A stretch of DNA of 34,574 nt from the NCBI GenBank assembly GCA_031459535.1, contig JAVKIJ010000033.1, positions 1 through 34,574 of the forward strand. The letters are read 5' to 3'. Under the pieces are notes generated by a model that was given only the letters and a program-made list of their open reading frames with translations, ran no database searches and was not told where the DNA came from. This document shows positions 3,131-27,667 of this stretch, piece after piece (positions within the stretch are counted from its first letter, which is position 1; every line of letters begins with the position of its first letter). The position numbers and the translations under genes were made by a program. This stretch comes from Candidatus Fervidifonticultor quintus. GTDB lineage: Bacteria; Sysuimicrobiota; Sysuimicrobiia; Sysuimicrobiales; Humicultoraceae.

Positions 3131-3140
3131 GCCGGCCTCC

Positions 3141-4244: not shown

Positions 4245-4264
4245 GTCCGAGGCTCCCGGGACGA

Positions 4265-4834: not shown

Positions 4835-4859
4835 CGGCACCTCCGGGGCGATCGCGGCC

Positions 4860-4914: not shown

Positions 4915-5493
4915 TCACCGGACATCCCTGAGAAGCCGCGAGAGGATCAACGGAACCGCGACAACCTGAACGAGCATGCCGGGGATTCCGGACGCGACCG
5001 CCGCTTTGAGATAGACCAGGGCCGGCACCCGGAGCCCGAGTAGGGGTCCAAGGGCCGCTGCCGCCAGGGCGAGGACGATCCGGCCCGCGACCATGGCAAC
5101 GAGGACGCCGGCCGTGAGGACGAGTAGAGGCGAGCGGCGTCCCGACTCACCATGCCGCAACCGCGCCGCCCGCATCGAGAGGCCGGCCACGGCGCCATAG
5201 GTCGCGAGCTCCGCCGTCATGAGTGGAGCCACAGGAGGCACCATGGGAGGCATGCCTGTCAGGAGATGCGACAGCAGCGGTGCCAACGCGCCGACCAGAC
5301 CACCAACCGCCGGACCCGCGAACCCTCCGACAACCAGCACCGGGAGGTGCATGGGGAGCAGGACCGGTCCGAGGCCGAACGGATGGACGGCGATCGGCAG
5401 AGCGATGGCCACGGCCAGCCCCACACCGCCAGCGGCGACTCCCCTCGACCGCCCACCGCGCCTGTCTGGTCGGCCCCCGACCCGGGCGGTCAA
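4915..5493 (-). CDS. ECF transporter substrate-specific (S) component, substrate unknown
   Basis: LLPMHLPVLVVG..GP..G..VG..APLLSHLLTGMPP, M..EL..YG, PGMLVQ; about six TM helices. TTG start overlaps the upstream stop (TTGA 5490-5493). Confidence 0.75.
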   Translation of the reverse strand: MTARVGGRPDRRGGRSRGVAAGGVGLAVAIALPIAVHPFGLGPVLLPMHLPVLVVGGFAGPAVGGLVGALAPLLSHLLTGMPPMVPPVAPLMTAELATYGAVAGLSMRAARLRHGESGRRSPLLVLTAGVLVAMVAGRIVLALAAAALGPLLGLRVPALVYLKAAVASGIPGMLVQVVAVPLILSRLLRDVR

Positions 5494-5960
5494 CCGCGCG
5501 CCTCGGAGCGGCGCATGTGCGCTGCCACACTCCGGACTACGCGGAGGGCCTCGACGGGATCGCGGCAGCCCTGTAGCGCCAGTTCGAACGGACACCCGTC
5601 GGTCTGTGCGCGGTTCAGGATGGCCGGCACCCGGACGCTCCATGAGAGCGCGATGCCGCGCCCCTGGGCTTCGAGCACTGCGGCGTCGCTCGCTGTCTCC
5701 CCGTGCGCCGCCTGCACGTCCACGGCCAGCGCCAGCAGAAGGGCCGCGCGGCCCAACACCCGATCCGCCAGGGCAGTGGCCCGGCCACCATGGTCTCGGA
5801 GCGCCTCCACCGCGTCCAGCAGCGGCATGATCCCATGGCGGTCGCCGCGGGCGACCACTTGACCCCCGCCCACCAGGACAAAGCCCGCCCCTTCGCGCCG
5901 CAGCAAGTCCACCGCGAGGCGGAGGTCGCGATCGACGGCCTCGTCGGCGTGGGTCGTCAT
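5490..5960 (-). CDS. DUF1893 (TM1506-like) protein
   Basis: GIMPLL, ADRVLGRAA, ILNR...DGCPFE pattern typical of DUF1893; next to an ECF S component. Confidence 0.8.
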   Translation of the reverse strand: MTTHADEAVDRDLRLAVDLLRREGAGFVLVGGGQVVARGDRHGIMPLLDAVEALRDHGGRATALADRVLGRAALLLALAVDVQAAHGETASDAAVLEAQGRGIALSWSVRVPAILNRAQTDGCPFELALQGCRDPVEALRVVRSVAAHMRRSEARG

Positions 5961-6688
5961 GGCCCCACGGGCGTGGGCGCCGGCAGCTCCGCGCTGCCCA
6001 GATACGCCAGGACGGCCTCGCGGATTCGCAAGATGTGGCGCCGCGCCGCCGCCTCAGCCGCGTCGGGATCCCGCCGTTCGAAGGCCTCGAGGATGGCCCG
6101 ATGCTCCTCCACCGCCTTCTGCATGCGGCCGGGGATCGTCGCCGATGTCCTGAACACGATGCGAATCTGGTCCTGGAGGGTGTCCAGGGCGTCCATGAGG
6201 CGGCGATTGCCGGCGCGCTCCCGGATCAGCCGGTGGAATTCGAGGTCGATGGCGACGTGAGCGTCGAGATCCCCTCGATCGACGGCCGCTTCGTGGCGCC
6301 CCATGAGGTCGCGAAGCCGGTCCAACAGCGCATCGTCCATCGTGACCGCCGCCAAGCGGGCCGCCAGGCCTTCGAGGATCTCCCGCATCTGGTAGATCTC
6401 GTTCACGTCCTGCTGCCGGAGGATGGCCACGAACGCGCCGCGGTTGGGCAGGGTCGTTACCAGACCGTCCTTCGAGAGCCGCTCCAGCGCCTCCTTGACC
6501 GGCGTCCGGCTGACGCCCAGTTGCCTGGCAAGTTGGGGCACGCTGAGTTTGCTTCCCGCCTTCAGCCGCTGGCTCAAGATGTGTCGCTTGAGCGCCCCAT
6601 AGACGCGGTCGCTGAGACTGGGGGTCATCTCCAGCGGCCTCAGGGCGTCGGTTGGTTCGCTTGGATCCAGATCCCTGATCTGCATCAT
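5957..6688 (-). CDS. GntR-family transcriptional regulator (FadR/FCD type)
   Basis: wHTH LARQLGVSRTPVKEALERL; FCD domain D.EFH...GN..L, EEHRAILEA, H. Confidence 0.93.
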   Translation of the reverse strand: MMQIRDLDPSEPTDALRPLEMTPSLSDRVYGALKRHILSQRLKAGSKLSVPQLARQLGVSRTPVKEALERLSKDGLVTTLPNRGAFVAILRQQDVNEIYQMREILEGLAARLAAVTMDDALLDRLRDLMGRHEAAVDRGDLDAHVAIDLEFHRLIRERAGNRRLMDALDTLQDQIRIVFRTSATIPGRMQKAVEEHRAILEAFERRDPDAAEAAARRHILRIREAVLAYLGSAELPAPTPVGP

Positions 6689-6787
6689 GCCCTTCCTTCA
6701 GGTCCCATAGACCCGAGGATCCCGACGGCAGGCCCCGTCGGGACCTGCCGTCGGGTTACGCGGCAGGCGATGCACCTATCTGTGTAC

Positions 6788-6816
6788 AAGTTACATGCAA
6801 CATGCAGAGCTTTCAA
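6788..6816 (-). promoter_or_regulatory. Putative gntR promoter with tandem heptamers in the spacer
   Basis: Minus strand TTGAAA-N17-TAACTT; ACATGCA ACATGCA (+ strand 6793-6806) lies in the spacer. Confidence 0.55.
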
Positions 6817-6863
6817 GAGACGCGACCAGGAGAACGAGGAACGAATCGCGAAGACAAGAGAGT

Positions 6864-6884
6864 ACATACAGCATTTTACATGCT
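6864..6884 (+). promoter_or_regulatory. Second heptamer array upstream of the ABC operon (candidate GntR operator)
   Basis: ACATACA-GCATTTT-ACATGCT in 7-bp register, similar to the 6793-6806 repeats, in an AT-rich divergent intergenic region. Confidence 0.45.
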
Positions 6885-6911
6885 ATCAACGTACCAATTA
6901 CCGAGTTGAGG

Positions 6912-7718
6912 ATGGCTGTGCGTCACAACACCGGTCGCTCAGGCGCGACGTCGGTTGGAACCAGATACGCGCTAGTGAGCTGGGGCACAGTCGCCGCCAT
7001 CCTCTTCCTGTGGTACCTGAGCACTTCGGCGGGATGGGTGTCCGCCTTCATCCTGCCTTCTCCTGGAGGCCTACTCGCCGAGTTCCGGGTCATGCTCGCG
7101 AAGGGCTACGCCGCCAAGCCGCTGGGAGAGCACGTCCTGGCCAGCCTGTTCCGCACGTTCACAGGCTTGGGACTGGGCATCGTCGTCGGCGTTCCCGTGG
7201 GATTGTCGATGGGCTACAGCCCGCTGGCCTACGCTATTCTGTCGCCGATCTTCGCCTTCCTGCGCCCGATCCCGCCCATCGCCTTCATCCCATTGATGAT
7301 CCTCTACTTTGGCATCGGCGAGTTCTCGAAGGTGGCACTGATCTTCCTGGCCGCCCTCTACTACGTGGTGCTGAACTCCTCGGCAGGCGTGCGCACGGTG
7401 CCCCGGGATCTCATCCGGGCCGGGGAGAACATGGGCCTCAGCCGCGTGCAGCTCTTCGCCAGGGTCATCTTCTGGGCCGCACTGCCCCATATCATGACAG
7501 GCATCAAGACTGCGACCGCGGTGAGCTGGGCAATCGTCGTGGCGGCCGAGCTGATCGCCGCCCAGGCCGGGTTGGGGTTCATGGTGATGGACGCCGCCAC
7601 GTTCTTCCGCGTGCCCAACGTCTACATCGGCATCATCATCATTGGTCTGATCGGCGTCACCCTCGAGGTGATCACGTTCTCCATCGACCGGAGGCTGTTG
7701 CATTGGACCGGCAAGTGA
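6912..7718 (+). CDS. NitT/TauT-family ABC transporter permease (TauC/SsuC-like)
   Basis: LPSP, RPIPPIAFIPL, EAA-like loop LIRAGENMG, VVAAELIAAQAGLG. ATG 6912 with GAG RBS. Confidence 0.9.
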   Translation: MAVRHNTGRSGATSVGTRYALVSWGTVAAILFLWYLSTSAGWVSAFILPSPGGLLAEFRVMLAKGYAAKPLGEHVLASLFRTFTGLGLGIVVGVPVGLSMGYSPLAYAILSPIFAFLRPIPPIAFIPLMILYFGIGEFSKVALIFLAALYYVVLNSSAGVRTVPRDLIRAGENMGLSRVQLFARVIFWAALPHIMTGIKTATAVSWAIVVAAELIAAQAGLGFMVMDAATFFRVPNVYIGIIIIGLIGVTLEVITFSIDRRLLHWTGK

Positions 7719-8554
7719 CCGCGCCGGCGGACGAACCGCCCCCCACCGCCAAGGCCAAGATCGTGTTCCGGCGGGTCGGCCGTGTGTTTCCCTCTACCTC
7801 GAAGCGCTCGAGTCCCGTGGTGGCCCTTCGCGACGTGAGCGGTGAGGTCTTCGATCAGGAGATCGTCGGTTTGCTCGGGCCCAGCGGGTGCGGCAAGACC
7901 ACACTGCTCAATCTCGTGGCGGGATTCGACCGTCAAGACGAGGGCGACATCTATGTCGCCGGCCGCCGTGTCGAACGCCCGGGGCCCGACCGCATGATGG
8001 TCTTCCAGTACCCGGCCCTCTTCGCTTGGTTGACCGTCTGGGAGAACGTGGTCTTCGGCCCCCGGCACCGCGGCGAGAATCCCCGCGACTACGAACCACG
8101 CGCCCGCAGCCTCCTGGACGCCGTCGGTCTGGCCGGGCGCGAACACGACTATCCGTATCAGCTCTCGGGTGGGATGAAGCAGCGCGTGCAGCTCGCACGG
8201 GCCCTACTCAACCGTCCCGAGGTGCTGTTGATGGACGAACCCTTCGGGGCGCTGGACTCCCAGACCCGCAGCCAGATGCAGGAACTCCTCCTGCAGGTCT
8301 GGGACCTCTACCACCCCACGATCCTTCTGGTGACCCACGACCCGGAGGAGGCCCTGTTCCTCTGTCACCGCATCTACGTCATGGGCCGCCAGGGCACCAT
8401 CCGGGAGAGCATTACCGTGCCATTTCCCTCTCCCAGGACCGTGGGATTGATCGGTACGGCCGAGTTCGCGCGCTTGAAGTTCGATCTGCTCTCCGCGTTG
8501 CGGGCCGACGAGAGCAGCACGGCTGCCTCACCGCAGCGTGGAGTCCATACCTAG
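7715..8554 (+). CDS. NitT/TauT-family ABC transporter ATP-binding protein
   Basis: GPSGCGKTT, PGPDR..VFQ, LSGGMKQR, LLMDEPFGALD, VTHD. GTGA overlap with the permease stop. Confidence 0.93.
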   Translation: MTAPADEPPPTAKAKIVFRRVGRVFPSTSKRSSPVVALRDVSGEVFDQEIVGLLGPSGCGKTTLLNLVAGFDRQDEGDIYVAGRRVERPGPDRMMVFQYPALFAWLTVWENVVFGPRHRGENPRDYEPRARSLLDAVGLAGREHDYPYQLSGGMKQRVQLARALLNRPEVLLMDEPFGALDSQTRSQMQELLLQVWDLYHPTILLVTHDPEEALFLCHRIYVMGRQGTIRESITVPFPSPRTVGLIGTAEFARLKFDLLSALRADESSTAASPQRGVHT

Positions 8555-8565
8555 GGAGGTGCCGC

Positions 8566-9558
8566 ATGCGCAGGAGTCTACATTGGATCGTCGCCGGCAT
8601 GGTGCTCGTGGTCGCGACGGGGCAGGGGTGGGCCCAAGTGCCGCTCCGCATCCGCATCGCGTGGCAGCCGTACAACGCCGTGATCTTCTACACGGCCCGT
8701 GATCTGCGGCTCTTCGAGCGGGTCGGGCTGCAGCCGGAGTATACGCGCTTCACAGCTGGGCCGCCGCAGTTCGCGGCGTTCGCCAGCGAGAGCGTGGACG
8801 TGGGGTTGTTCGGCACGGCCGGGATGGTAGTCGGCGCATCCCAGGGCCTGGAGTACCGCAACTTCTACATCCAGATTGCCAGCAGCTACGCCGACGGTCT
8901 CGTCGTCCGTCCGGATAGCGGCATCACCAGGCTGCCGGAACTCCGGGGCAAGCGCATCGCGTTCATGCGGGGGACCAGTGCCCACCTGGGCCTGGTGAAG
9001 GCGCTCCAGAGTGCCGGCCTCTCGGCAGCAGACGTCACGATGATCCATATGGACGTCACGGCCATGGCGCCAGCGTTCGCCAGGGGAGACGTGCACGCCG
9101 CCTACTCCTGGGAGCCCTGGATCTCGAGGATGCAGGAGGCCGGCGGGCGCGTGCTCGTGCGCAGCCACGATGTCGGGCTGAACACCTCGGACCATTGGGT
9201 GGCGCGGGTGGCCTGGGTCCAGAGGAATCCCCGGGCCGTGCTGTTGATGCTGCGGGCCATTGACCTGGCCCTGGAGGAGTTCCGGCGCAATCCCGCGGTG
9301 GCCATTCGGGCCACGGCGGAGAACCTGGGCGTCAGCGAGGTGGTCGCCAAGCGGATCGTCGAGATCAACCCGGTGTTGACGCTGGAGCAACTGGTAGATC
9401 CCAGGTTCGAGCTCTCCCTGCTGCCCGGCGGCGGCGCCCAGCGCATGATCCAGGAAGTCGGAGACTTCCTCCTGCGCGAGGGGATCACCAGGGCGCCGAT
9501 CGACGCCAGCAAGATCGTGGAGGGGTCGTACATCCAGGCGTACCTCCGGACGAAGTAG
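8566..9558 (+). CDS. ABC substrate-binding protein, SsuA/TauA (aliphatic sulfonate/taurine-type) family
   Basis: Signal peptide; FTAGP, ELRGKRIA..GTSAH, WEPW. GGAGG RBS. Confidence 0.85.
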   Translation: MRRSLHWIVAGMVLVVATGQGWAQVPLRIRIAWQPYNAVIFYTARDLRLFERVGLQPEYTRFTAGPPQFAAFASESVDVGLFGTAGMVVGASQGLEYRNFYIQIASSYADGLVVRPDSGITRLPELRGKRIAFMRGTSAHLGLVKALQSAGLSAADVTMIHMDVTAMAPAFARGDVHAAYSWEPWISRMQEAGGRVLVRSHDVGLNTSDHWVARVAWVQRNPRAVLLMLRAIDLALEEFRRNPAVAIRATAENLGVSEVVAKRIVEINPVLTLEQLVDPRFELSLLPGGGAQRMIQEVGDFLLREGITRAPIDASKIVEGSYIQAYLRTK

Positions 9559-9580
9559 CAGGCGACTACGGAGCGCCTAC

Positions 9581-10576
9581 ATGGCCCAGGCTGTGGTGCT
9601 GGTCACCGCTCGCATGTTCGGGCGGATCACCGACGCTGCAGGCCGCCGCCTGGAGGCGGCCGGATACCGGTTGCGCTTCCCCGCCGACCGCAACCGCCCG
9701 GCGCGGCCGGATGAGGTCCGCCCGTTGCTGAGCGATGTGGAGGCCGTCATCGCGGGCGTCGAGCCGTGGACGGACGATCTGATGGCTGCGGCACCACGGC
9801 TGCGACTGATCTGCCGGTTCGGCGTCGGGTTCGACTCCGTGGATGTGGACGCCGCCTCGCGGCGGGGCATCCTGGTGGCGACCACGCCGGCCGCGAACCA
9901 CACCGCCGTGGCCGAACACACCATGGCCTTGATGCTGGCCGTCACGCGCCGCGTCGCGCGGCAGGACGCCGGAGTCAAGCGGGGGGAGTGGGTGCCCGAG
10001 CCGGGGCCGGAGCTACGCGGCCGGACGCTTGGGATCGTGGGGCTCGGCCGGATTGGGCGCGAGGTGGCCGACCTGGCCCGAGCTTTCGGCATGCGCGTCC
10101 TGGCGTGCGAGACGGCACCGGATCGCACGTTCGTTGCCAGCAGGGCCATCCCGCTGGTGGACCTGGAAACACTGCTGGCCCAATCCGACGTCGTCACCTT
10201 ACACGTTCCCCTCACCCCGCAGACCCAACGGATCATCGATGCTGCGGCCCTGGCGAAGATGCGACCGGGCGCGTATCTGGTCAACACTGGCCGGGGCGGG
10301 CTGGTGGACGAGGCCGCTCTCTACGACGCCTTGGTATCTGGGCGCCTGGCAGGCGCGGGGCTGGACGTGGCCGACCCGGAGCCTCCGGAGAACTGGCGCC
10401 TCGCGCGACTCCCGCAGGTGGTCATGACGCCGCATGTGGCAGGACTGAGTACAGATGCCATTGCCCGCATGGAGACCCTGGCGGTCGAGACCACCCTGGC
10501 AGTGCTGCGGGGCGAGTGCCCGCCGACTGTGCTGAATCCCCACGCCGCGACCCCTCCCGGGAGGCTGACGACATGA
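9581..10576 (+). CDS. D-isomer-specific 2-hydroxyacid dehydrogenase (SerA-like, no ACT domain)
   Basis: GVGFD, AVAEH, GIVGLGRIG, LVNTGRGGLVD, GLDV...EP, TPHVAG. Confidence 0.9.
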   Translation: MAQAVVLVTARMFGRITDAAGRRLEAAGYRLRFPADRNRPARPDEVRPLLSDVEAVIAGVEPWTDDLMAAAPRLRLICRFGVGFDSVDVDAASRRGILVATTPAANHTAVAEHTMALMLAVTRRVARQDAGVKRGEWVPEPGPELRGRTLGIVGLGRIGREVADLARAFGMRVLACETAPDRTFVASRAIPLVDLETLLAQSDVVTLHVPLTPQTQRIIDAAALAKMRPGAYLVNTGRGGLVDEAALYDALVSGRLAGAGLDVADPEPPENWRLARLPQVVMTPHVAGLSTDAIARMETLAVETTLAVLRGECPPTVLNPHAATPPGRLTT

Positions 10577-11478
10577 AACGACTGCGTGGCATGTATCCTG
10601 CGCTGGTCACACCGTTTTGCGCCGAAGGCGCGGTGGACGAAGCCGCGCTGCGGCGTCTTGTGGCCTACCATGTGGCCAAGGGCAGCGACGGGTTGTTCCT
10701 GTGCGGATCGTTGGGCACCGGGCCCGCCATGTCCGCTGAAGAACGCCGACGGGTCGCAGAGGTCGCCGTCGACGCGGCCGGCGGGCGGCTGGGCATCATC
10801 GTCCACGTGGGCTCGATCAATCCGCAGGAGGCGGCGGCGCTGGCCCGGCACGCAGAGAGCCTGGGGGCCGACGCGGTGGCCGCCATCGCGCCGTACTACT
10901 ACAGGCCCACATGGCCGGTCGTGCGCGCGTTCTATGAGCGGCTGGTGGATGCGACCCGGCTGCCGGTCTGGGCGTACAACCAACCGCTCCATACCCACTT
11001 CGAGTTCACGGTGGACCAGGTGCTCGAGCTGGCCCAACGGGGCGTGCGCGGGTACAAGGACGGCGGGCTCTCGCTCTACGCGTTCCAGCAGGTGCTCGGC
11101 CGCGTCAACCGGGAGGAATTCACCGTGTTCACCGCGGTGCCGTCCGTGCTGTTTGCCGCCCTGGCCGCCGGCGCCGACGGGTTCATCGGCGGCCCGAACA
11201 ACGCTGTGCCCCAGTTCTACAACGCCCTCTACGCCGCGGTGCGCGCCGGCGACTGGGCGCGTGCGGTGGCGCTCGAGCGCCGGGCAGGCGAAGTGTTCCG
11301 CCTCTGCGGCGGCCCCGGAAACGTTCCCATGTGGCAGGCGCTGCTGACCGAGTTTGGCGTCGAGGCCGGCCTCACACGGCTGCCGCACCCACCCATCACC
11401 GACGAGGTGCGCGCCGCGGCCAGCGCCAACGCAGCGCGCCTGCGGCAGATCCTGGCCGAACTACACGTTGCGTGGTGA
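10573..11478 (+). CDS. DHDPS/NAL-family Schiff-base aldolase or dehydratase
   Basis: PALVTPF, GSLGT (divergent GxxGE), PYYY, catalytic YNQP and YKDG. ATGA overlap with the upstream gene. Confidence 0.85.
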   Translation: MKRLRGMYPALVTPFCAEGAVDEAALRRLVAYHVAKGSDGLFLCGSLGTGPAMSAEERRRVAEVAVDAAGGRLGIIVHVGSINPQEAAALARHAESLGADAVAAIAPYYYRPTWPVVRAFYERLVDATRLPVWAYNQPLHTHFEFTVDQVLELAQRGVRGYKDGGLSLYAFQQVLGRVNREEFTVFTAVPSVLFAALAAGADGFIGGPNNAVPQFYNALYAAVRAGDWARAVALERRAGEVFRLCGGPGNVPMWQALLTEFGVEAGLTRLPHPPITDEVRAAASANAARLRQILAELHVAW

Positions 11479-11491
11479 GGGCGTGACATCC

Positions 11492-12394
11492 ATGAGGGTC
11501 GGACTCGTCGGCGTCGGCACCATGGGCAGCCGCATTCTGGCGCGGCTGATCGAATCTGGCCACAGCGTCGTCGCCAGGGATATCGCGCCCGAAGCCGAAC
11601 ACCGGGCGGCGCAGGCGGGCGCCACCGTCGCTGGCTCCCCGGCAGAGGTCGCCCGGCGGGCGAGCCTCATCCTCCTCTCCCTCCCCATGCCAGCGGACGT
11701 GGATCAGGTCGTCGGCGGCGACGACGGGCTGCTTGCGGGGGCGCAGCCGGGCGCCATCATCGTCGACCTGAGCACCGTCGACCCTGATACGACCCGCCGC
11801 AACGCCGCGCGCGCCGCCGCCCGGGCTGTCGGGTACCTGGACGCGCCGGTCCTCGGCCGGCCGCCCGGATGCGGCCGTTGGACCCTGCCGGTCGGCGGGG
11901 AGGCCTCACAGCTGGAACGCGCGCGGCCGGTCCTCCAGACGCTCGCCGCCCGGGTGATCCACGTGGGATCCAGCGGCGCCGGCAACGTGGTCAAGTTGCT
12001 AAACAACATGATGTTCTCGGCCATCAATGCGGTGACCGCCGAGGTGCTGGCCGTCTGCGCCGCCCTGGGCATGGACCCGCACGTCTTCGTGAGCGCGGTG
12101 GCCGACAGCGGGGCCGCCACGGTGAGCAACCTGTTCCGTGAGCTTGGACCCAAGATTCTGGCCCGCGACTTCTCGCCGGCGTTCAGCATCGACCTGCTAC
12201 ACAAGGACGTCCGGTTGGCGCTGGAGATGGCCTCCCGCGCCAAGGCGCCCACGGTCATCACGCCGGCCGGCTTGGTGCTCATTGAGATGGCCCGCGCCCG
12301 CGGCCACGGTGCAGAGGACACCGGGGCGGTCGTGAAGGTCTTCGAGGCCCTGAGGACCGGCGAGACGGAGCCGCACGGGGAGGTGCGTCGGTGA
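11492..12394 (+). CDS. NAD(P)-dependent beta-hydroxyacid dehydrogenase (3-hydroxyisobutyrate/6-phosphogluconate dehydrogenase family)
   Basis: GVGTMG, DLST, DAPVLG, catalytic KLLNN, F....L.KD. Confidence 0.88.
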   Translation: MRVGLVGVGTMGSRILARLIESGHSVVARDIAPEAEHRAAQAGATVAGSPAEVARRASLILLSLPMPADVDQVVGGDDGLLAGAQPGAIIVDLSTVDPDTTRRNAARAAARAVGYLDAPVLGRPPGCGRWTLPVGGEASQLERARPVLQTLAARVIHVGSSGAGNVVKLLNNMMFSAINAVTAEVLAVCAALGMDPHVFVSAVADSGAATVSNLFRELGPKILARDFSPAFSIDLLHKDVRLALEMASRAKAPTVITPAGLVLIEMARARGHGAEDTGAVVKVFEALRTGETEPHGEVRR

Positions 12395-13815
12395 TCGCCG
12401 TTCCGCTGGAGTATGGCGACGAGATGATGACCGTCGAGGTGCCCGACCACGCCACCGTGTTCTGGCCCGGCCGGTCCCATCAGGATCCGCCCGAGGTGGA
12501 TCCCGCCGAGGCCACGCGCCAGGCGCTGGCTGCGCCGTGTGGCGCACCGCCCCTGCGGGATCTGGTGCGAGCCGGCAGCCGCGTCGTGGTCGCATTCCCG
12601 GACCGCGTCAAGGGCGGCACCCACGAGCGCGCCCACCGCAAGGTCGCGATCCCGATCATTGTGGAGGAACTGGAACGCGCCGGCGTGCGCCCCGAGCACA
12701 TCACGTTGCTGTGCGCCATGGGGCTGCACCGGAAGAACACCTACGAGGAGCTGGTCGGCTACCTCGGCCAGCGGACGGTGGATGCCTTCTGGCCCGATCG
12801 GCTGCTGATGCACGACGCCGAGGACCCCGACGGCATCGTCCGCCTGGGTACCACCGAGTACGGAGACGTGGTCGAGGTCAACCGGCATGTCGCCGAGGCC
12901 GACCTGACCATCCTCGTCGGCCACACCCAGGGCAACCCCTACGGCGGCTACAGCGGGGGGTACAAGATGGCCGCGACCGGCATCACCACCTGGCGGTCGA
13001 TCCGCGGGCACCACAGCCCGACCACGATGCTGCGGGCCGACTTCGTGCCGGTCAACGTGGACCGCAGCCACATGCGCCGGCAGTTCGATGCGGTGGGGCG
13101 GACGATCGAGCGCGGCATCGGCAAGCGGTTCTTCACCGTCGACGCCGTGCTTGGGACTACGGCGCAGGTGCTCGGCGTCTTTGCCGGCACGCCTGACGCC
13201 GTCCAGGAGGCGTCGTGGCCGCTGGCGGCACGACGGACCGATGTGGCGCTGGACATCGCCGAGCCGTTCGACGCGGTGATCTTCGGCCAGCCTCGGTCGT
13301 TTCACTATGGCCCCGGTATGGGCACGAACCCCATCCTCATGCTGCAGTCCATCGGCGCCCAGATCACCCGCCACCGGGACGTGCTGCGCGAGGGGGTCGT
13401 GGTGATCGTAACCTCGATCTGCGACGGCTGGTTCAACGACGCGTGGTTCCCCTCGTACCGGCCGGTCTTCGAGCGGCTCGCCCTAGTGAACGACTTTGCG
13501 GAGGTGGCGCGCTTCGAGGACGAGATCTCGACCGATCCGGCCCTTGTGCGCAAGTACCGGGTGGAGTATGCCTATCACCCCTTCCATGCGTTCTCGATGG
13601 TGTACATGGGGACGGTGGCCCATCGGTACGCCGAACGCATCTTCATCGTCGGGGCCCGGGCGCCGGGCCACGCCCGCGCCATGGGCTGCACGCCGGTCGC
13701 GACCGTGGACGAAGCCCTGCGTCGTGCCCGGCACATTGTGGGCCCCAATCCCCGCCTCCTGGTGCTGCCGGAGGCGTTCACCAAGGTACCGGTCCACCTG
13801 CGGAGGAAGCGCTAG
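12391..13815 (+). CDS. LarA-family (DUF2088) nickel-pincer-nucleotide-dependent racemase/epimerase-like protein, divergent
   Basis: LEYG start, ALAAP.G...L, AMGLHR, MHDAED, EVNRHVAEADL, GGYSGGYK, IRGHH. GTGA overlap with the upstream gene. Confidence 0.85.
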   Translation: MIAVPLEYGDEMMTVEVPDHATVFWPGRSHQDPPEVDPAEATRQALAAPCGAPPLRDLVRAGSRVVVAFPDRVKGGTHERAHRKVAIPIIVEELERAGVRPEHITLLCAMGLHRKNTYEELVGYLGQRTVDAFWPDRLLMHDAEDPDGIVRLGTTEYGDVVEVNRHVAEADLTILVGHTQGNPYGGYSGGYKMAATGITTWRSIRGHHSPTTMLRADFVPVNVDRSHMRRQFDAVGRTIERGIGKRFFTVDAVLGTTAQVLGVFAGTPDAVQEASWPLAARRTDVALDIAEPFDAVIFGQPRSFHYGPGMGTNPILMLQSIGAQITRHRDVLREGVVVIVTSICDGWFNDAWFPSYRPVFERLALVNDFAEVARFEDEISTDPALVRKYRVEYAYHPFHAFSMVYMGTVAHRYAERIFIVGARAPGHARAMGCTPVATVDEALRRARHIVGPNPRLLVLPEAFTKVPVHLRRKR

Positions 13816-14447
13816 TGCGCATCCATGACCTGACCCATCCGGTGGGCGACGGCACCGAGGCAGGCTTCCACCTGCCTCCAGCCACCGTTCGGCTCTGGCA
13901 GCCCGTGCCGGAGAGAGGCTGGTGGGCGACGGACATTCGCCTCCCATCCCACATCGGCACCCACGTCGATGCCCCCCGACACTGGCTGGCCGACGGCGCC
14001 ACCGTCGAGGCGCTCGATCTTGACATCCTCGTCGGACCTGCCATCGCCCTGGACCTGACGCGTCGGGCAGACGCCCAACAGGTCACCGTAGCAGACCTGG
14101 AGGCGGCCGCTCCCCAGACCCCGCCCCGCTGGTTGCTTCTGACGGGGTGGGATCGCACCTTCGGTACCCGCGAATACTTCACCGCGTATCCCTCGCTGGG
14201 GCCCGAGGCCGCTGAATGGATCGTCGGCCGCGGGGTGCGCCTGCTGGGCGTGGACATGCCGTCCCTGAGCAGAACCGCGAATCCCGCGACACACCGGGTG
14301 TTGCTGCAGGCGGGTGTCGTAGTCGTCGAGGGGTTACGGGGACTCGCGGCGCTTCTGGGTCGGACATTCGTGATCTGTGTGCTCCCCCTGTGCGTTGCGG
14401 GGGCTGACGGCGCCCCAGCGCGTGCCGTCGCCCTCGAGTTCGAGTGA
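13815..14447 (+). CDS. Cyclase-family (kynurenine formamidase-like) metal-dependent hydrolase
   Basis: DLTHP, HIGTHVDAPRH, GVDMPS, THRVLL, VEGL, GADGAPARAVA. GTG start overlaps the larA-like stop (TAGTG). Confidence 0.9.
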   Translation: MRIHDLTHPVGDGTEAGFHLPPATVRLWQPVPERGWWATDIRLPSHIGTHVDAPRHWLADGATVEALDLDILVGPAIALDLTRRADAQQVTVADLEAAAPQTPPRWLLLTGWDRTFGTREYFTAYPSLGPEAAEWIVGRGVRLLGVDMPSLSRTANPATHRVLLQAGVVVVEGLRGLAALLGRTFVICVLPLCVAGADGAPARAVALEFE

Positions 14448-14457
14448 GGAGGTGGTC

Positions 14458-15504
14458 ATGCAAGCCGCCAGGCTGTTTGGTACTCGCGACATGAGGGTCG
14501 TCCAGGTCAACCGGCCTCACCCTGCCCGCGGTGAGGTGGTCGTCCGGGTGGCGTATGCGGGCATCTGTGGGACGGATCTCGAGATCTACACCGGCCGGAT
14601 GCCGTTCGTCCGGATGGGCTGGGTTCCATTGCCCCAGACGCTGGGACACGAGTGGTCGGGGATCGTCGACGAGGTCGGCGAAGGGGTCACGGAGTTCGCC
14701 CCCGGAGATCGCGTCACAGGCGACGTGACCATCTCGTGCCGGATGTGCGAATACTGCAAGGCTGGCCGGTACAACATCTGTCCCAACCGCAGGTCGGTGG
14801 GGATCATCCGCAAGGACGGCGCGTTTGCCGAGTTCCTGGTGATGCCGATCCACCATGTCTACAAGCTGCCTGAAGGGCTCTCCCTGGAGGATGCCGCGGT
14901 GACCGAACCCGCCAGTTGCGCCCTGCACGCGGTGCAACGTCTGGGCCCAGACCCCGGCGACCGGATCGTGGTGATCGGTGATGGCACACTGGGCCTGCTG
15001 GCCCTGCAGGCGGCCCGTGCCGTGGGTGCAGGGCGCGTGGTGCTGATCGGATCGCACGACGAGAAACTGGCCATCGCCCGGCAGCTGGGGGCGTACGCCA
15101 CGGTGAATCGCCATCGCGACGATGTCGTGCAGGCCCCGCTGGACCTGCTGGGCGGGAAGGTCGAAGGCGTGATCGAAGCCTCCGGCAATGCGGCGGCCTT
15201 CGGGTCGGCCCTCAGGCTCCTGCGTCCCGGTGGGAGAATGGTGATCATCAGCATCTACCATGAACCGGTCTCATCCGCCGACCTAGCCTTTGTCGCGACC
15301 AACGAGATCGTCCTCTCCGGAACCCTGGCAGGCCCCAACGTGTTCCCAGGCCTCCTGCGCCTGATGGCTGAGGGGGCCATTCGCACGCGTCCGTTGATCA
15401 CCCAGCGTCTGCCTCTGGCCCAGGTGCCGGACGCGTTCCAGAAGATCGAGTCACGCAGCGAGCTCTCTGTGAAGACCATGGTGACGATCCGCGGCGAGGC
15501 GTGA
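14458..15504 (+). CDS. Zn-dependent medium-chain alcohol/polyol dehydrogenase (sorbitol/threonine dehydrogenase-like)
   Basis: GICGTD, GHEWSG, structural-Zn CRMCEYC...NIC, GDGTLG. GGAGG RBS. Confidence 0.92.
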   Translation: MQAARLFGTRDMRVVQVNRPHPARGEVVVRVAYAGICGTDLEIYTGRMPFVRMGWVPLPQTLGHEWSGIVDEVGEGVTEFAPGDRVTGDVTISCRMCEYCKAGRYNICPNRRSVGIIRKDGAFAEFLVMPIHHVYKLPEGLSLEDAAVTEPASCALHAVQRLGPDPGDRIVVIGDGTLGLLALQAARAVGAGRVVLIGSHDEKLAIARQLGAYATVNRHRDDVVQAPLDLLGGKVEGVIEASGNAAAFGSALRLLRPGGRMVIISIYHEPVSSADLAFVATNEIVLSGTLAGPNVFPGLLRLMAEGAIRTRPLITQRLPLAQVPDAFQKIESRSELSVKTMVTIRGEA

Positions 15505-15516
15505 CCTCGCAGCCTC

Positions 15517-16398
15517 ATGACCGCGCAATGGCCAGAGTCCTGGGAGGGCCTGCGGGCTCTCGTCCTGGTGGCGGGGAACTCCCGTGCGGTCATCCTCCCC
15601 GACGCAGGGGCGAAGGTAGCGTCGCTGGTCCTGGGGGATCACGAGGTGCTGTGGCGTAACCCCCACGTCCCGATTCGCCCGGCGCCTTACGGCGCGCGGT
15701 ACCGCGACTGGGGGGCCAGCGGCATTGACATCTGTTTCCCGTCGATCGCTCCCTGCCCGTTCCCCTCCCCGCCCTGGCGTGGTCTGGCCGTACCCGACCA
15801 CGGCGAAGTCTGGGCGCTGCCCTGGACTGTGGAGATCCGGCCTGACGGTGCACACCTGTGGGTTGAAGGACGCCAGTGGCCGTACCGCCTGGCCCTGATC
15901 GTACGCCTCGACGACGGCACGCTGGCGTTTACCACGCAGGTGGAGAACCTGGGCGACGCCGCCTTCCCGTACTTGTGGGCCCTCCACCCGGCCTTCCCGT
16001 TGACCAGGCAGACCCGCCTCCGCTGGCCCGCCTCGGAACATGTGGAGGCCAAGGGTCAGCGCATGGAGCTGTACACTCCGGGGCGCGTGCCAGAAGGGTT
16101 CGTGGCAAAGGTCTTTGCCGGACCGCTCCACCGTGGAGAGGTCACGCTGGAGGAGGACCGGATCACCGTGCGGTTCCAGTGGGACCCGCGCCTGCTGCCC
16201 TACCTCGGTGTCTGGATATCCAACGAGGACGAAACCCAGACCGGCGGCCGACGGTGCATCGCGGTGGAGCCTTCGTTCGCGCCCACGGACAGCCTGGAGG
16301 CCGCCTTCGCTGCCGGGTCGGCGCCCGTGGTCGCCCCCGGCGGCACGCACCAGTGGCAGGTCACCATGGCGTCCCGCCTCACTCCCGCAGGGGCGTGA
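15517..16398 (+). CDS. Galactose mutarotase-like (aldose 1-epimerase superfamily) protein
   Basis: GAKVASL, G.D.CFP, PDHGEVW, YLWALHP, IAVEP. Confidence 0.75.
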   Translation: MTAQWPESWEGLRALVLVAGNSRAVILPDAGAKVASLVLGDHEVLWRNPHVPIRPAPYGARYRDWGASGIDICFPSIAPCPFPSPPWRGLAVPDHGEVWALPWTVEIRPDGAHLWVEGRQWPYRLALIVRLDDGTLAFTTQVENLGDAAFPYLWALHPAFPLTRQTRLRWPASEHVEAKGQRMELYTPGRVPEGFVAKVFAGPLHRGEVTLEEDRITVRFQWDPRLLPYLGVWISNEDETQTGGRRCIAVEPSFAPTDSLEAAFAAGSAPVVAPGGTHQWQVTMASRLTPAGA

Positions 16399-16711
16399 TG
16401 TGCTTGACCCAGTAGAACCGCGCCATCTCCCGCACCCGACCTGCGGGCACGCCACGCACCTCGATGGTGTTACCCTCGGTGCCAGAGACCCGGCCGAAGC
16501 GCTGCATCATCAGGGTGTGGAAGCGCTCGGGCGGAAACCGCAACGTAACCCTGAGGTCGACCGTACCCCTGGGCGAGACGTACGCCGCCAGGTCGGGCGG
16601 CATCTTGCCCTCTGCCTGATAGGCCAGCCAGCCGTGCCAGGCCGCGACGACCAGCGTCGCCCCCAGGAGCCACCGCCCGGTGCGCGAGGCGAGCACGCGC
16701 CGCAGCTTCAC
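16379..16711 (-). CDS. Small membrane-anchored hypothetical protein coupled to the ABC ATPase
   Basis: 110 aa; basic N-terminus, one hydrophobic helix, then a compact domain (FPPERFH...GRVSG...YWV). GTGA overlap with the ATPase stop. Confidence 0.7.
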   Translation of the reverse strand: MKLRRVLASRTGRWLLGATLVVAAWHGWLAYQAEGKMPPDLAAYVSPRGTVDLRVTLRFPPERFHTLMMQRFGRVSGTEGNTIEVRGVPAGRVREMARFYWVKHITPLRE

Positions 16712-17481: not shown

Positions 17482-17487
17482 CGGGCG

Positions 17488-19142: not shown

Positions 19143-19144
19143 GT

Positions 19145-21255: not shown

Positions 21256-21265
21256 GGGCCCTCGC

Positions 21266-22710: not shown

Positions 22711-22734
22711 GGCGAGACCTGACGATCCGGCAGG

Positions 22735-22812
22735 GTTCTGTCCAGAATACGGACTCTTTGCCCTCATCGTGAGATTCGCTGCCAGCAGGGTAACTCCTGT
22801 CCGCCACAGAAC
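22735..22812. promoter_or_regulatory. Candidate IclR operators in the iclR/transketolase divergent region
   Basis: GTCCAGAATACGGAC (22740-22754, GTCC-N7-GGAC palindrome) and a related GTCCGCCACAGAAC (22799-22812). Confidence 0.45.
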
Positions 22813-23693: not shown

Positions 23694-23703
23694 GAAACCG
23701 GCC

Positions 23704-27093: not shown

Positions 27094-27139
27094 CGCCTCC
27101 GTCCCACAACGCCCTGCGACACCCTCGCGGGCACCAGGC

Positions 27140-27607: not shown

Positions 27608-27667
27608 GGATGCTGTCGCCTCATTCGCGACAGACGAGCGCGCCCCCTTTCCCGAGGGGACCGGCGC

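Follow-up and report, generated by a model that had tools for sequence, protein, structure and literature searches.

The non-phosphorylative Entner-Doudoroff-type and the oxidative uronate-aldarate pathways combine a sugar dehydrogenase, a lactonase, an acid-sugar dehydratase, a 2-keto-3-deoxy-acid aldolase and a tartronate-semialdehyde reductase. Hydroxypyruvate isomerase together with tartronate-semialdehyde reductase makes up the gcl-hyi-glxR system, while the tetronate routes employ LtnD/DenD and OtnI. Structures of single-histidine LarA homologues were solved in 2025 (9q2u, 9q3j; Gatreddi et al. 2025, PMC12611868); according to the available sections of that paper, lactate racemisation was not detected in this subfamily, which has no known activity and is suspected of a role in carbohydrate metabolism.

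The window, i.e. the whole analysed stretch of 34,574 nucleotides from Candidatus Fervidifonticultor quintus, harbours ten co-oriented genes at 6912-16398 of the plus strand (Table 1). They are tentatively read as one operon through which an anionic sugar would be taken up and oxidatively degraded without phosphorylation; a carboxylated sugar acid of the uronic, aldonic or aldaric type is the most likely substrate. Within this operon, a LarA homologue and its dehydrogenase would form a separate isomerising module.

Table 1. Features of the operon and of its divergent flank.
Feature	Position	Strand	Family or remark
ECF-transporter S component	4915..5643 (open frame)	-	PF12822, 40 bits
DUF1893/TM1506-family protein, deaminase-like fold, predicted nucleotide binder	5490..5960	-	downstream of GntR gene; PF08973, 77 bits
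GntR/FCD-family regulator	5957..6688	-	divergent from operon; PF00392 + PF07729
Divergent control region	6689..6911	.	between GntR gene and operon
NitT/TauT-type ABC permease	6912..7718	+	PF00528 (BPD_transp_1)
ABC ATPase	7715..8554	+	PF00005 (ABC_tran)
NMT1/SsuA-family periplasmic binding protein	8566..9558	+	PF09084 (NMT1)
D-isomer-specific 2-hydroxyacid dehydrogenase	9581..10576	+	PF02826, PF00389 (2-Hacid_dh)
DHDPS/N-acetylneuraminate-lyase-family class I pyruvate aldolase	10573..11478	+	PF00701, 183.6 bits
Beta-hydroxyacid dehydrogenase, conserved LarA-homologue partner	11492..12394	+	PF03446 (NAD_binding_2), PF14833 (NAD_binding_11)
LarA homologue, single-histidine (His-to-Asn) subfamily	12391..13815	+	PF09861 (Lar_N), 142 bits
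Cyclase-family (kynurenine-formamidase-like) metal hydrolase	13815..14447	+	PF04199, 101 bits
Zn-dependent medium-chain dehydrogenase, polyol/threonine-dehydrogenase type	14458..15504	+	PF08240 (ADH_N), PF00107 (ADH_zinc_N); PF16912, 42 bits
Aldose-1-epimerase-fold protein, DUF4432/DUF5107 group	15517..16398	+	PF01263 (Aldose_epim), 39.9 bits, weak

The compact layout described in the earlier note, with overlaps or gaps of no more than 22 nt, was confirmed: the genes are joined by three 4-base overlaps, one 1-base overlap and gaps of 11, 22, 13, 10 and 12 nt, the starts of the beta-hydroxyacid dehydrogenase (11492) and Zn-dehydrogenase (14458) genes each having been corrected by 3 nt to an ATG. 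Neither sigma-70-like promoters nor intrinsic terminators were found within 6500-17000 (shuffle means 0.8 and 3.5), which fits a single transcription unit without proving one. The arrangement goes beyond chance, since the genome of another, sister genus shows synteny for nine of the ten genes (locus L018, 64-87% amino-acid identity), and a short contig from a third genome (L025) does so for all six genes visible on it. Together with the enzyme families and the tight spacing, this synteny speaks for sugar-acid catabolism. Away from these two close relatives, the LarA homologue is repeatedly accompanied by its dehydrogenase partner and the transporter type alone, the other operon enzymes being lineage-specific; hence the neighbourhood conservation proposed as a check holds among relatives, but the ten genes form no fixed set elsewhere. 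All NCBIfam matches of the ten genes stayed below the curated cut-offs, so that no characterised pathway is matched, just as the earlier note had maintained; that all enzyme assignments are sub-cut-off also counts against the sugar-acid reading.

The operon is probably under the control of the divergent GntR/FCD regulator, an orthologue of which (72% identity) occupies the same position in L018. The control region contains a perfect 12-nt inverted repeat (6721-6732/6744-6755) and two copies of TACATGC, at 6792 and 6877. Regulators of the FCD type usually sense carboxylates, which favours a carboxylated sugar acid as the substrate.

The best NCBIfam match of the permease is TauC (194.5 bits versus a cut-off of 342), that of the ATPase SaoA and the taurine ATPase (∼212 bits, below cut-offs), and the binding protein scores 157.4 bits with TIGR01728 (SsuA_fam, cut-off 163.5). 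In the PDB, the latter is most similar to TauA (6ssy, 75.5 bits), followed by SsuA (3e4r, 2x26), and that these nearest relatives are all sulfonate binders counts against the sugar-acid reading. On the other hand, a second NitT/TauT importer in the window is accompanied by a KDG/KDGal-kinase-like PfkB gene (217 bits) and an RraA-type aldolase; this transporter type is therefore paired twice with keto-deoxy-acid enzymes in the organism, which counts in favour.

From the protein families we infer the following order of steps. After import by the NitT/TauT-type transporter, the anomers of the substrate would be handled by the epimerase-fold protein, the sugar oxidised by the Zn-dehydrogenase, and the lactone (or amide) opened by the cyclase-family hydrolase. 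Dehydration would be performed by an enolase-superfamily dehydratase, here one of nine paralogues encoded elsewhere in the genome, whereupon the DHDPS-family aldolase would release pyruvate from the 2-keto-3-deoxy acid and leave a short fragment, a hydroxy-aldehyde or acid, the 2-hydroxyacid dehydrogenase taking over the redox handling of that fragment. The window's own operon contains no dehydratase gene, which argues against the scheme, and the best of the nine paralogues are only 43-44% identical to the gene of L018. That operon, however, is headed by an enolase-superfamily gene that is most similar to dehydratases of acid sugars (in the PDB 4ggb, 258 bits, and galactonate dehydratase 5olc, 234 bits; in NCBIfam galactonate dehydratase, 188 bits, and talarate/galactarate dehydratase, 179 bits). 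This supplies the dehydratase step missed in the earlier note, strengthens a route that runs from oxidation through hydrolysis and dehydration to aldol cleavage, and favours a carboxylated sugar acid over a sulfosugar. The earlier proposal that an anionic sugar derivative is imported and oxidatively degraded is supported at the level of families. At an unrelated locus (L091), the same dehydratase cluster lies directly 3' of a LarA homologue, and further support comes from the homologues that the Zn-dehydrogenase (33% identity), 2-hydroxyacid dehydrogenase (40%) and epimerase-fold genes (28%) have there; a TRAP transporter and a hydrolase of the beta-lactamase fold are also encoded at L091.

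The individual assignments differ in how well they suit this scheme. The aldolase, with its AYNQP and GYKDG motifs, matched N-acetylneuraminate lyase best in NCBIfam (175.7 bits, cut-off 281) and 8u8w best in the PDB (141.8 bits), and scored 119.9 bits with the archaeal KD(P)G aldolase model. For the 2-hydroxyacid dehydrogenase, PGDH (256 bits), glyoxylate reductase (233 bits) and GhrB (178 bits) were all below cut-offs. The hydrolase carries the motif HIGTHVDAPRH and resembles 8hmo and 1r61 (“metal-dependent hydrolase”, 79 bits) as well as kynurenine formamidases (54-64 bits); no cyclase-family enzyme is known to act as a lactonase, and this counts against the sugar-acid reading. So does the Zn-dehydrogenase, which, with 4ej6 (194 bits), ketose reductase 1e3j (178 bits) and sorbitol and threonine dehydrogenases as its PDB relatives, resembles secondary-alcohol-oxidising polyol/threonine dehydrogenases, unlike known aldose 1-dehydrogenases. 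The epimerase-fold protein gave no NCBIfam match, and no counterpart of its gene was found in the L018 operon; a structure match in the ESM Atlas (TM 0.91) supports the assigned fold.

Over its full length, the LarA homologue matched 9q2u/9q3k (448 bits) and 9q3j (405 bits). Residues D71, K74, H113, N182, K192, H208, H305, Y306 and H399 are invariant across 38 sequences; an Asn takes the place of the second catalytic His, while all other cofactor-binding residues are kept. Judged by these residues, the gene belongs to the single-histidine subfamily and does not encode a classical 2-hydroxyacid racemase. The C2 epimerisation attributed to it earlier is consequently not sustained. Among 84 LarA-homologue loci from many phyla, there are only three recurring associates, namely a dedicated beta-hydroxyacid dehydrogenase (48 loci), NitT/TauT-type ABC parts (27-37 loci) and an extended SDR just upstream (29 loci; best NCBIfam match D-erythronate dehydrogenase, 121 bits), and neither a DUF1537 kinase nor a class II aldolase-type decarboxylase was found among the largest clusters around LarA homologues (∼35 annotated proteins).

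The dehydrogenase partner is marked by a private signature, DAP[VI]LGRP, present in 48 of 50 sequences including that of the window. Its NCBIfam matches, all below cut-offs, are tartronate-semialdehyde reductase (2-hydroxy-3-oxopropionate reductase, 186 bits), sulfolactaldehyde reductase (181 bits) and L-threonate dehydrogenase (156 bits). The pair is read as a separate two-enzyme module moving between pathways. In this module, the dehydrogenase would interconvert the hydroxy and oxo group of a small hydroxy-acid, and the LarA homologue, by means of its nickel-pincer cofactor, would then shift a hydride to the adjacent carbon. Such a reaction would be a unidirectional isomerisation like that of hydroxypyruvate isomerase or oxo-tetronate isomerase, not a racemisation. 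The recurrent pairing, the signature and the Asn among otherwise preserved cofactor residues speak for the proposed scheme, as does the likeness of the upstream SDR and of the partner to D-erythronate and L-threonate dehydrogenases, respectively; against it stands the top PDB match of the partner, the sulfolactaldehyde reductase YihU (6sm7, 158 bits), which leads by a narrow margin only (3cky, 156 bits; 1vpd, 150 bits).

Neither LarB, LarC nor LarE was found, so that the LarA homologue may be without its cofactor unless this is otherwise obtained, another point against the sugar-acid reading. LarC is absent from all nine genomes of this order that bear a LarA homologue, and bacteria with this operon seem unable to make the nickel cofactor. 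The DUF1893 protein (PDB 1vk9, 32 bits; D66, G70, S91 and C123 invariant over 26 sequences) adjoins the LarA homologue in nine of ten DUF1893-bearing genomes, in eight of them along with the ECF S component, homologues of which directly follow the LarA-homologue/dehydrogenase/DUF1893 genes in eight related genomes. The S component of the window probably starts near 5460, giving ∼180 aa; its ESM Atlas feature matches (0.92-0.94) are ECF S-component clusters of 174-211 aa. In addition, DUF1893 and LarC are nearly mutually exclusive in 301 Bacillota-type genomes (1/41 versus 177/260), of which literature searches returned no published account. Taken together, the missing LarC, these neighbours and the near-exclusion hint that the cofactor may be salvaged.

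The sulfonate-type matches raise the question of a variant Entner-Doudoroff-like sulfoglycolytic route for a sulfosugar or C3 sulfonate, which seems unlikely. Here the SsuA/TauA-like importer would take up a sulfonate, the epimerase-fold protein, Zn-dehydrogenase and cyclase would serve as sulfoquinovose mutarotase, sulfosugar dehydrogenase and lactonase, the DHDPS aldolase would yield pyruvate and sulfolactaldehyde, the YihU-like dehydrogenase would form dihydroxypropanesulfonate, and the LarA homologue and 2-hydroxyacid dehydrogenase would act on sulfolactate or DHPS. Besides the near-cut-off SsuA_fam score and the TauA, SsuA and YihU matches, such a route could draw on the Gly-Arg (for the usual Ser-Gly-Gly) and Asn174 shared with YihU, whose sulfonate pocket is taken from the available part of PMC8006165; however, a Phe is aligned with YihU Ser178, and YihU outscores 2-hydroxymethylglutarate dehydrogenase and tartronate-semialdehyde reductase by very little. 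Beyond the phylum, the nearest LarA homologues (Neomoorella, 66-67% identity) have as neighbours a PFK-family kinase, a class II aldolase and a TIM-like gene together with a CUT1 importer and a TauE/SafE exporter, a neighbourhood resembling the sulfo-EMP2 gene set as given in the accessible part of PMC12890257, yet TauE accompanies only 4 of the 84 loci. A sulfite-oxidase-family gene is present at 316-1926, but Pfam scans of the window's open frames revealed neither a sulfoquinovosidase nor a sulfonate exporter nor any family of C-S-cleaving enzymes. The FCD type of the regulator is a further point against such a route, as is the absence of “LarA” from the retrieved reviews of sulfoquinovose catabolism.

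It is likewise improbable that the locus is a mosaic with no single linear pathway, in which a transferable unit of four genes (those of the LarA homologue, its partner dehydrogenase, DUF1893 and the ECF S component) with its own small nucleotide-like or C3/C4 hydroxy-acid substrate was inserted, in this lineage, into an unrelated sugar-acid operon. The four genes do accompany one another in eight more genomes of the phylum, inside CUT1-importer operons of varied content, and appear to have diverged as a set, since all four share ∼50-57% identity with those of the window; several genomes have DUF1893 and the S component fused, one has DUF1893 and the dehydrogenase in a single open frame, and the window's other six enzymes and transport genes are rare beside LarA homologues elsewhere (1-11 of 80 loci). 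Nevertheless, in the window and L018 the LarA homologue and dehydrogenase sit mid-operon with 4-base overlaps with their neighbours, the order is kept in L018 and L025 without DUF1893 or S component, and at L091 sugar-acid enzymes of these kinds are independently combined with a LarA homologue. Less probable still is an N-acylated or ulosonic (sialic-acid-like or KDO-like) sugar acid, cleaved directly by the aldolase with no need for a dehydratase, the cyclase removing a formyl or acyl group and the dehydrogenases and epimerase-fold protein processing the released sugar. The N-acetylneuraminate lyases heading both searches with the aldolase, the amide hydrolases (formamidases, isatin hydrolases) among the cyclase's named relatives and the lack of a dehydratase in the window's operon would suit it, but the aldolase stays below the lyase cut-off, the sister-genus operon does include a dehydratase, and none of the kinase, ManNAc epimerase and deaminase genes known from sialic-acid routes was found in the window.

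Read as an operon for sugar-acid catabolism, the locus shares with the Entner-Doudoroff-type and uronate-aldarate pathways a Zn-dehydrogenase, a hydrolase, an enolase-superfamily dehydratase (in the orthologous operon), a DHDPS-family aldolase and a dehydrogenase best matched by 2-hydroxy-3-oxopropionate reductase. It differs in its cyclase-family hydrolase, NitT/TauT importer and embedded LarA homologue, in the missing dehydratase of the window's copy and in that no equivalog cut-off is reached. As in gcl-hyi-glxR and the LtnD/DenD and OtnI systems, a dehydrogenase (plus, at 29 loci, the extended SDR) is paired with a possible oxo-shifting enzyme, although here a nickel-pincer enzyme would take the place of the TIM-barrel isomerase, and the L-threonate and D-erythronate dehydrogenase matches of the partners are all far below cut-offs. 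The logic of mutarotase, dehydrogenase, lactonase, dehydratase, aldolase and C3-sulfonate redox is also that of the Pseudomonas putida SQ1 sulfo-Entner-Doudoroff pathway, and the YihU-like top match and sulfonate-type binding protein recall it (available parts of PMC12890257 and PMC8006165); however, every step here would involve a different protein family, sulfoquinovosidase and exporter are missing, and the beta-hydroxyacid dehydrogenase keeps the YihU sulfonate pocket only in part.

The LarA homologue itself agrees with the Streptococcus plurextorum (9q2u/9q3k) and Blautia wexlerae (9q3j) proteins, as presented in the available sections of PMC12611868, in the Asn replacing the second catalytic His, in the thioamide-link Lys, nickel-ligand His and ribose-phosphate Asp/Lys, and in the His-Tyr and His of the new substrate pocket. 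The published proteins lie among glycolysis-like genes of Firmicutes, whereas here a sugar-acid-type operon with a NitT/TauT importer surrounds the gene; the dehydrogenase partner, the transporter link and the missing cofactor-synthesis genes do not appear in sections 2.1 and 2.3-2.6 of that paper. DUF1893 beside a small multi-pass membrane protein was described for the TM1506/DUF1893 family by Iyer et al. 2011 (PMC3239186), the accessible part of which predicts that the fold binds NAD, ADP-ribose or a similar nucleotide. Compared with that account and with ECF vitamin transporters, the pair of DUF1893 and S component is distinguished here by its fusion in several genomes and its position beside a LarA homologue.

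The LarA homologue of the operon carries a Lar_N domain (PF09861, 142 bits) and aligns over residues 4-473 with the PDB structures of Gatreddi et al. 2025 (448 and 405 bits), whereas the classical LarA and malate racemase structures are matched with 65-88 bits only. The corresponding NCBIfam models scored far below their cut-offs (LarA, 133.8 bits vs 460; malate racemase, 145.8 vs 500). In alignment with the solved protein, the GLHRKN and QGNPYGG motifs of the window protein fall on His115 and Asn185, so the first catalytic histidine is kept (H113) and the second is replaced by asparagine (N182), both residues being invariant among the 38 subfamily sequences aligned. K192 (thioamide link) and H208 (nickel ligand) are invariant in the same 38 sequences and align with Lys195 and His211, which are given as the covalent cofactor link and the nickel ligand of the solved protein in excerpts of the original paper (PMC12611868). 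The window protein also has the pocket residues, and the Asp and Lys next to the ribose phosphate, at the corresponding positions, and they are invariant in the 38 members. A subfamily with an invariant Asn in place of the second catalytic His has been described by Gatreddi et al. 2025 (PMC12611868). According to the same excerpts, the solved single-histidine protein is an octamer with a new substrate pocket (His115, His306, Tyr307, His401), lactate racemisation was not detectable, the bound ligand was left without an identity, and a role in carbohydrate metabolism was suspected only.

Judged from these alignments, the LarA homologue belongs to the single-histidine (His-to-Asn) LarA subfamily and stands outside the two-histidine racemase class (LarA, Mar, Hgr, GntE). 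The C2 epimerisation that the earlier note had assigned to this enzyme is therefore not upheld, since with Asn in place of the second His the protein falls into a different family branch from the one presumed. It was suggested that LarA homologues lacking one His may use one enantiomer and move the hydride to the adjacent carbon (Desguin et al. 2020), and the protein of the operon is expected to be an isomerase that shifts a hydride in one direction, not an epimerase. A role of the LarA homologue as the missing dehydratase was also considered, and was dropped on chemical grounds, because transient oxidation at C2 would give no 3-deoxy product.

The ten co-oriented genes reported earlier were recovered by open-frame listing combined with a codon-position GC filter. 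Their junctions consist of three 4-base overlaps, one 1-base overlap and gaps of 11, 22, 13, 10 and 12 nt, as counted after a one-codon shift of the start to ATG for two genes (11492, 14458), and scanning revealed neither promoter-like nor terminator-like sites within the operon. Pfam assigned the gene families claimed for it, with a NitT/TauT-family importer encoded by three neighbouring genes (PF09084, PF00528, PF00005). For the putative mutarotase, the Pfam match is weak and the fold is supported: this epimerase-fold protein gave 39.9 bits with Pfam only, a best PDB sequence match of 28 bits and no NCBIfam match, and its ESM Atlas structure match has a TM of 0.91. None of the ten operon proteins reached a curated cut-off in the NCBIfam search, and thus none can be equated with an enzyme of a characterised pathway, in agreement with the earlier view that the operon matches no described pathway. 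The divergent control region contains an inverted repeat and two TACATGC copies, which are candidates for operators bound by the GntR regulator.

Coordinates of the operon, its divergent unit and other features of the window
Feature	Position	Strand	Remarks
Sulfite-oxidase-family molybdoenzyme	316-1926	minus	Oxidored_molyb and Mo-co_dimer; N-terminal extension of ~260 residues with no family match
Compact complex-I-like subunits (30, 49, 20 kDa) and 2x[4Fe-4S] ferredoxin-like frame	2043-4840	minus	resembles a small module of the hydrogenase or Mbx kind more than a full nuo operon
ECF S component	4915 to ~5460		PF12822, 40 bits; Atlas 0.92-0.94
DUF1893/TM1506 protein	5490-5960		after the GntR regulator, divergent unit
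GntR/FCD regulator	5957-6688		divergent from operon
Inverted repeat	6721-6755		perfect, 12 nt, 11-nt loop
TACATGC	6792, 6877		4 copies in whole window
Ten-gene operon	6912-16398	plus	Pfam, in order: BPD_transp_1 permease, ABC ATPase, NMT1 binding protein (8566-9558), D-2-hydroxyacid dehydrogenase, DHDPS-family aldolase, beta-hydroxyacid dehydrogenase, Lar_N, cyclase-family hydrolase, Zn medium-chain dehydrogenase, weak aldose-epimerase match
Beta-hydroxyacid dehydrogenase	11492-12394	plus	partner of LarA homologue
LarA homologue	12391-13815	plus	
ATPase, second NitT/TauT importer	16708-17481	minus	
Permeases, second importer	17488-18312, 18315-19142	minus	
NMT1/SsuA-like binding protein, second importer	19145-20248	minus	
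KDG/KDGal-kinase-like PfkB	20245-21255	minus	
RraA/HMG-aldolase-family protein	21266-22114	minus	
IclR regulator	21919-22767	minus	
Split transketolase, N-terminal subunit	22851-23693	plus	divergent from IclR gene
Split transketolase, C-terminal subunit	23524-24666	plus	
Ordinary Suf cluster	26626-34078	minus	NifU-like, cysteine desulfurase, Rieske protein, SufD/SufB, SufC-like ATPase; also adenosine deaminase

The genes from the second importer to the IclR regulator (16708-22767) form another cluster of the keto-deoxy-acid type, with the same type of transporter and no assigned pathway. Split transketolases, such as the one next to it, are found in the sulfo-TK pathway among others.

Relatives of the LarA-like protein were found in 9 of the 41 genomes of the same order, a count that includes two unpublished genomes (G013 and G022), both negative. 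Two of the nine carriers, both of another genus, have a copy of the LarA homologue that is 81-84% identical, and the named loci closest to the window are labelled as Armatimonadota MAGs. In the orthologous operon of the sister genus (L018), the genes are kept at 64-87% identity to the window and follow the order GntR, permease, ATPase, binding protein, 2-hydroxyacid dehydrogenase, aldolase, beta-hydroxyacid dehydrogenase, LarA homologue, cyclase and Zn-dehydrogenase. The epimerase-fold gene is absent from the L018 operon, which starts with an enolase-superfamily gene not present in the window operon and ends with TctC, a short frame taken for TctB, TctA and an Ldh_2-family dehydrogenase. In a third genome, all six genes visible on a 5.9-kb contig (L025) are conserved. 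The joint conservation of the gene set, on which the earlier note had made its reading depend, thus holds for L018 and L025, but the enzyme genes of the operon other than the LarA homologue and its partner dehydrogenase are rare in the 80 wider LarA loci.

These loci are the best 80 (51-84% identity) of the 242 relatives obtained in a wider scan of one genome per species, and span Bacillota, Chloroflexota, Desulfobacterota, Pseudomonadota, Acidobacteriota, Deinococcota, Actinomycetota and an archaeon. Open frames were clustered from 85 sources (the 80 loci, four relatives and the window), of which 84 gave a LarA-homologue frame; as many contigs are short, the neighbour counts are lower bounds. 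A beta-hydroxyacid dehydrogenase was located near the LarA homologue in at least 48 of the 84 loci, followed by an ABC ATPase (at least 37), an extended SDR directly upstream (at least 29), a NitT/TauT permease (at least 27), a LacI regulator (at least 26), an NMT1 binding protein (at least 19), an alkaline-phosphatase-superfamily phosphodiesterase (at least 16), parts of a CUT1 sugar importer (at least 14-16) and a TIM-like protein (at least 10). Meanwhile tblastn detected the remaining operon genes in few of the best 80 of 242 loci (2-hydroxyacid dehydrogenase in 5, aldolase in 3, cyclase in 3, Zn-dehydrogenase in 6, epimerase-fold in 1). The recurrence counts define a stable core of LarA homologue and dehydrogenase, often with an anion-type importer, and the ten-gene set is a lineage-specific elaboration of that core.

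The partner dehydrogenases constitute a group of their own, with DAP[VI]LGRP instead of the usual DAPVSGG in 48 of 50 sequences; the sulfolactaldehyde reductase YihU has VPVGRT at this position. The NCBIfam matches of the partner are tartronate-semialdehyde reductase (186 bits), sulfolactaldehyde reductase (181) and L-threonate dehydrogenase (156), and the best match of the upstream SDR is D-erythronate dehydrogenase (121 bits vs a cut-off of 325). Partners of the tetronate pathway (DUF1537 kinase, class II aldolase) were not found among the ~35 annotated proteins of the larger LarA-neighbour clusters. In L081, L096 and 14 further clusters of the Desulfobacterota type, the LarA homologue occurs with the phosphodiesterase (650 aa) and with CUT1 and NitT/TauT importers, which hints at a substrate precursor that is phosphodiester- or ester-linked.

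As to the substrate of the operon, a carboxylated sugar acid is tentatively proposed, with somewhat less than even confidence; a catabolic operon of the sugar-acid type would then have recruited the LarA homologue and its dehydrogenase as a portable module. By sequence comparison, the enolase-superfamily gene at the head of L018 appears most like acid-sugar dehydratases. Among PDB entries it matches 4ggb, a galactarolactone cycloisomerase, with 258 bits and the galactonate dehydratase 5olc with 234 bits, and among NCBIfam models galactonate dehydratase (188) and talarate/galactarate dehydratase (179). A dehydratase of the same cluster directly follows the LarA homologue at an unrelated locus (L091), which also encodes a TRAP transporter, a Zn-dehydrogenase, a beta-lactamase-fold hydrolase, a DUF4432 protein and a 2-hydroxyacid dehydrogenase. 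The FCD type of the regulator and the association of the second NitT/TauT importer with a KDG/KDGal-kinase-like PfkB and an RraA-type aldolase were likewise counted for a sugar acid. Of the non-phosphorylative pair, the DHDPS-family aldolase is present in the window operon and the dehydratase, absent there, is at the head of L018; nine enolase-superfamily paralogues are encoded in the window genome outside the operon. Hence the earlier statement that sulfoquinovosidase, dehydratase and desulfonating enzyme are missing is correct for the window, but not, as regards the dehydratase, for the orthologous operon.

A sulfonate or sulfosugar as the substrate seems unlikely, even though the nearest solved relatives of the binding protein are TauA and SsuA, its SsuA_fam score of 157.4 bits is only 6 bits short of the cut-off (163.5), and the top PDB match of the partner dehydrogenase is, narrowly, YihU. 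Moreover, LarA relatives of Neomoorella (66-67% identity) have a PFK-family kinase, a class II aldolase, a TIM-like gene, a CUT1 importer and a TauE/SafE exporter nearby, a gene set that resembles sulfo-EMP2 as summarised in PMC12890257. On the other hand, Pfam scans of the open frames of the window detected no sulfoquinovosidase (GH31), exporter (TauE) or desulfonating family, and of the residues that form the sulfonate pocket of YihU (excerpts of PMC8006165), Asn174 is kept in the partner dehydrogenase while Ser178 is replaced by Phe. The curated cut-offs for sulfonate importers were not reached either (TauA, 118.4 vs 304; TauC, 194.5 vs 342; SsuC, 139.6 vs 347). With sulfoquinovosidase and exporter absent from these scans and the pocket kept in part, the earlier conclusion that this is no standard sulfoglycolysis cluster stands.

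In the Neomoorella/Moorella loci L026, L027 and L028, the LarA homologue is placed between the TIM-like gene and a GntR/UTRA regulator, and DUF1634 is found next to the kinase, aldolase, importer and exporter genes. L027 adjoins a divergent set of IlvD/Edd dehydratase, DHDPS aldolase, TctABC and 2-hydroxyacid dehydrogenase. Since the strains are cultured, the function of these three loci is open to growth tests.

LarC (PF01969), involved in nickel-pincer cofactor synthesis, was detected neither in the genome of the window (88.85% complete) nor in any of the nine genomes of the order that carry a LarA homologue (76-97% complete, one in 4 contigs), nor in any of the 24 genomes of the bacterial family of the window, and the LarB and LarE models gave nothing over the cut-off in all six genomes tested. 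The absence of LarC from nine of nine genomes is hard to ascribe to assembly gaps, though absence in incomplete genomes is no proof. LarC is present in all four genomes of a sister family without this LarA homologue and, outside the phylum, in all five genomes that encode a protein of the subfamily. Other, more classical LarA homologues (Lar_N, 180-194 bits) were noticed in G009, G018, G023 and G024; their occurrence in a LarC-less family means that the missing cofactor pathway is not confined to the single-histidine subfamily. A LarA homologue whose cofactor site is predicted to be intact is thus encoded within genomes in which no cofactor pathway was found. Either the cofactor is shared among community members, or it is made by other, still unrecognised enzymes, or the proteins work without it, and each of these would alter the genome-based prediction of nickel-pincer enzymes.

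The divergent unit may be relevant in this respect. DUF1893 was found in 10 of 94 genomes of the phylum and adjoins the LarA homologue in nine of the ten. Seven genomes were shown by tblastn to have the LarA homologue followed by dehydrogenase, DUF1893 and S component; in an eighth (G004), from which tblastn itself retrieved no DUF1893, its place follows from the family search and the flanking tblastn matches. In the window, DUF1893 belongs to the divergent unit and is not located behind the LarA homologue and dehydrogenase. As assembled, DUF1893 and the ECF S component form one frame of 370-390 aa in five genomes (G012, G020, G002, G095, G096), and at locus L113 (G001:C63, 610-1953) the partner dehydrogenase and DUF1893 form one uninterrupted frame of 448 aa. 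The DUF1893/S-component pair is missing from the LarA loci outside Armatimonadota. EcfT (PF02361) has two matches in the window genome, and a predicted complex of LarA homologue and DUF1893 (score 0.02, mark 0.32) counts neither way. TM1506 has a deaminase-like fold with a predicted NAD- or ADP-ribose-like ligand, and is linked to a 5TM membrane protein and TonB receptors and predicted to act with membrane transporters (Iyer et al. 2011, excerpts of PMC3239186).

The relation of DUF1893 to LarC was surveyed in 301 genomes from the phylum of Neomoorella (Bacillota-type), with a LarA homologue defined as Lar_N at E<=1e-20. DUF1893 was present in one of the 123 genomes with both LarA homologue and LarC, in 22 of the 44 with a LarA homologue and no LarC, in none of the 55 with LarC only and in 18 of the 79 with neither, that is, in 1/178 genomes with LarC vs 40/123 without. 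Among LarA carriers, the exclusion has an odds ratio of 122 (Fisher p ~2e-14), kinship being ignored and completeness not known. The share of LarA-homologue genomes without a LarC match (44/167, completeness not known) is larger than the literature led us to expect. Among the DUF1893 proteins from the best 30 loci the median pairwise identity is 36%, so that they are not one shallow clade. In these Bacillota-type genomes DUF1893 is not next to the LarA homologues, but lies on another contig or at a distance of hundreds of kb. Pyridine-nucleotide salvage genes were sought beside DUF1893 in the 30 loci and this candidate was rejected, as only the ECF S component recurred (at least 6 of 30); the neighbours, otherwise variable, include LexA, PilN/PilO-like and RadA-like genes. 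The exclusion pattern, which adds to the puzzle of the absent cofactor pathway, fits a system that replaces cofactor synthesis, such as an uptake route, and is also compatible with a deep phylogenetic coincidence.

It may be proposed, with considerable doubt, that the nickel-pincer enzyme is used without own synthesis, DUF1893 and the ECF S component importing and handing over the ready cofactor or a late precursor, which would be released by neighbouring organisms. The lack of LarC in all nine carriers of the order and the presence of DUF1893 in half of the LarC-less LarA-homologue genomes of the 301-genome sample speak for such salvage, as does the prediction of DUF1893 as an NAD-like nucleotide binder acting with membrane transporters (PMC3239186, in part); according to published protocols, the free cofactor withstands 90 C for 10 min (excerpts of PMC13524815). 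Nevertheless, the two genomes with a true orthologue of the window operon have neither DUF1893 nor S component, the co-occurrence statistics ignore kinship, and the 18 genomes with DUF1893 and no LarA homologue imply that DUF1893 cannot serve LarA alone. Literature searches found no report of nickel-pincer cofactor salvage or ECF uptake, and none connecting DUF1893/TM1506 with LarA. If true, salvage of an organometallic nickel cofactor would have its first example here.

With respect to the enzyme itself, the candidate substrates of the LarA homologue are narrowed to small hydroxy-oxo acids and sugar acids, which can be purchased or made enzymatically. For the single-histidine LarA subfamily, highlighted in 2025 as a probable case of new nickel-pincer chemistry, a partner with its own signature, a recurring transporter type and two independent links to acid-sugar dehydratases provide a handle on the substrate.
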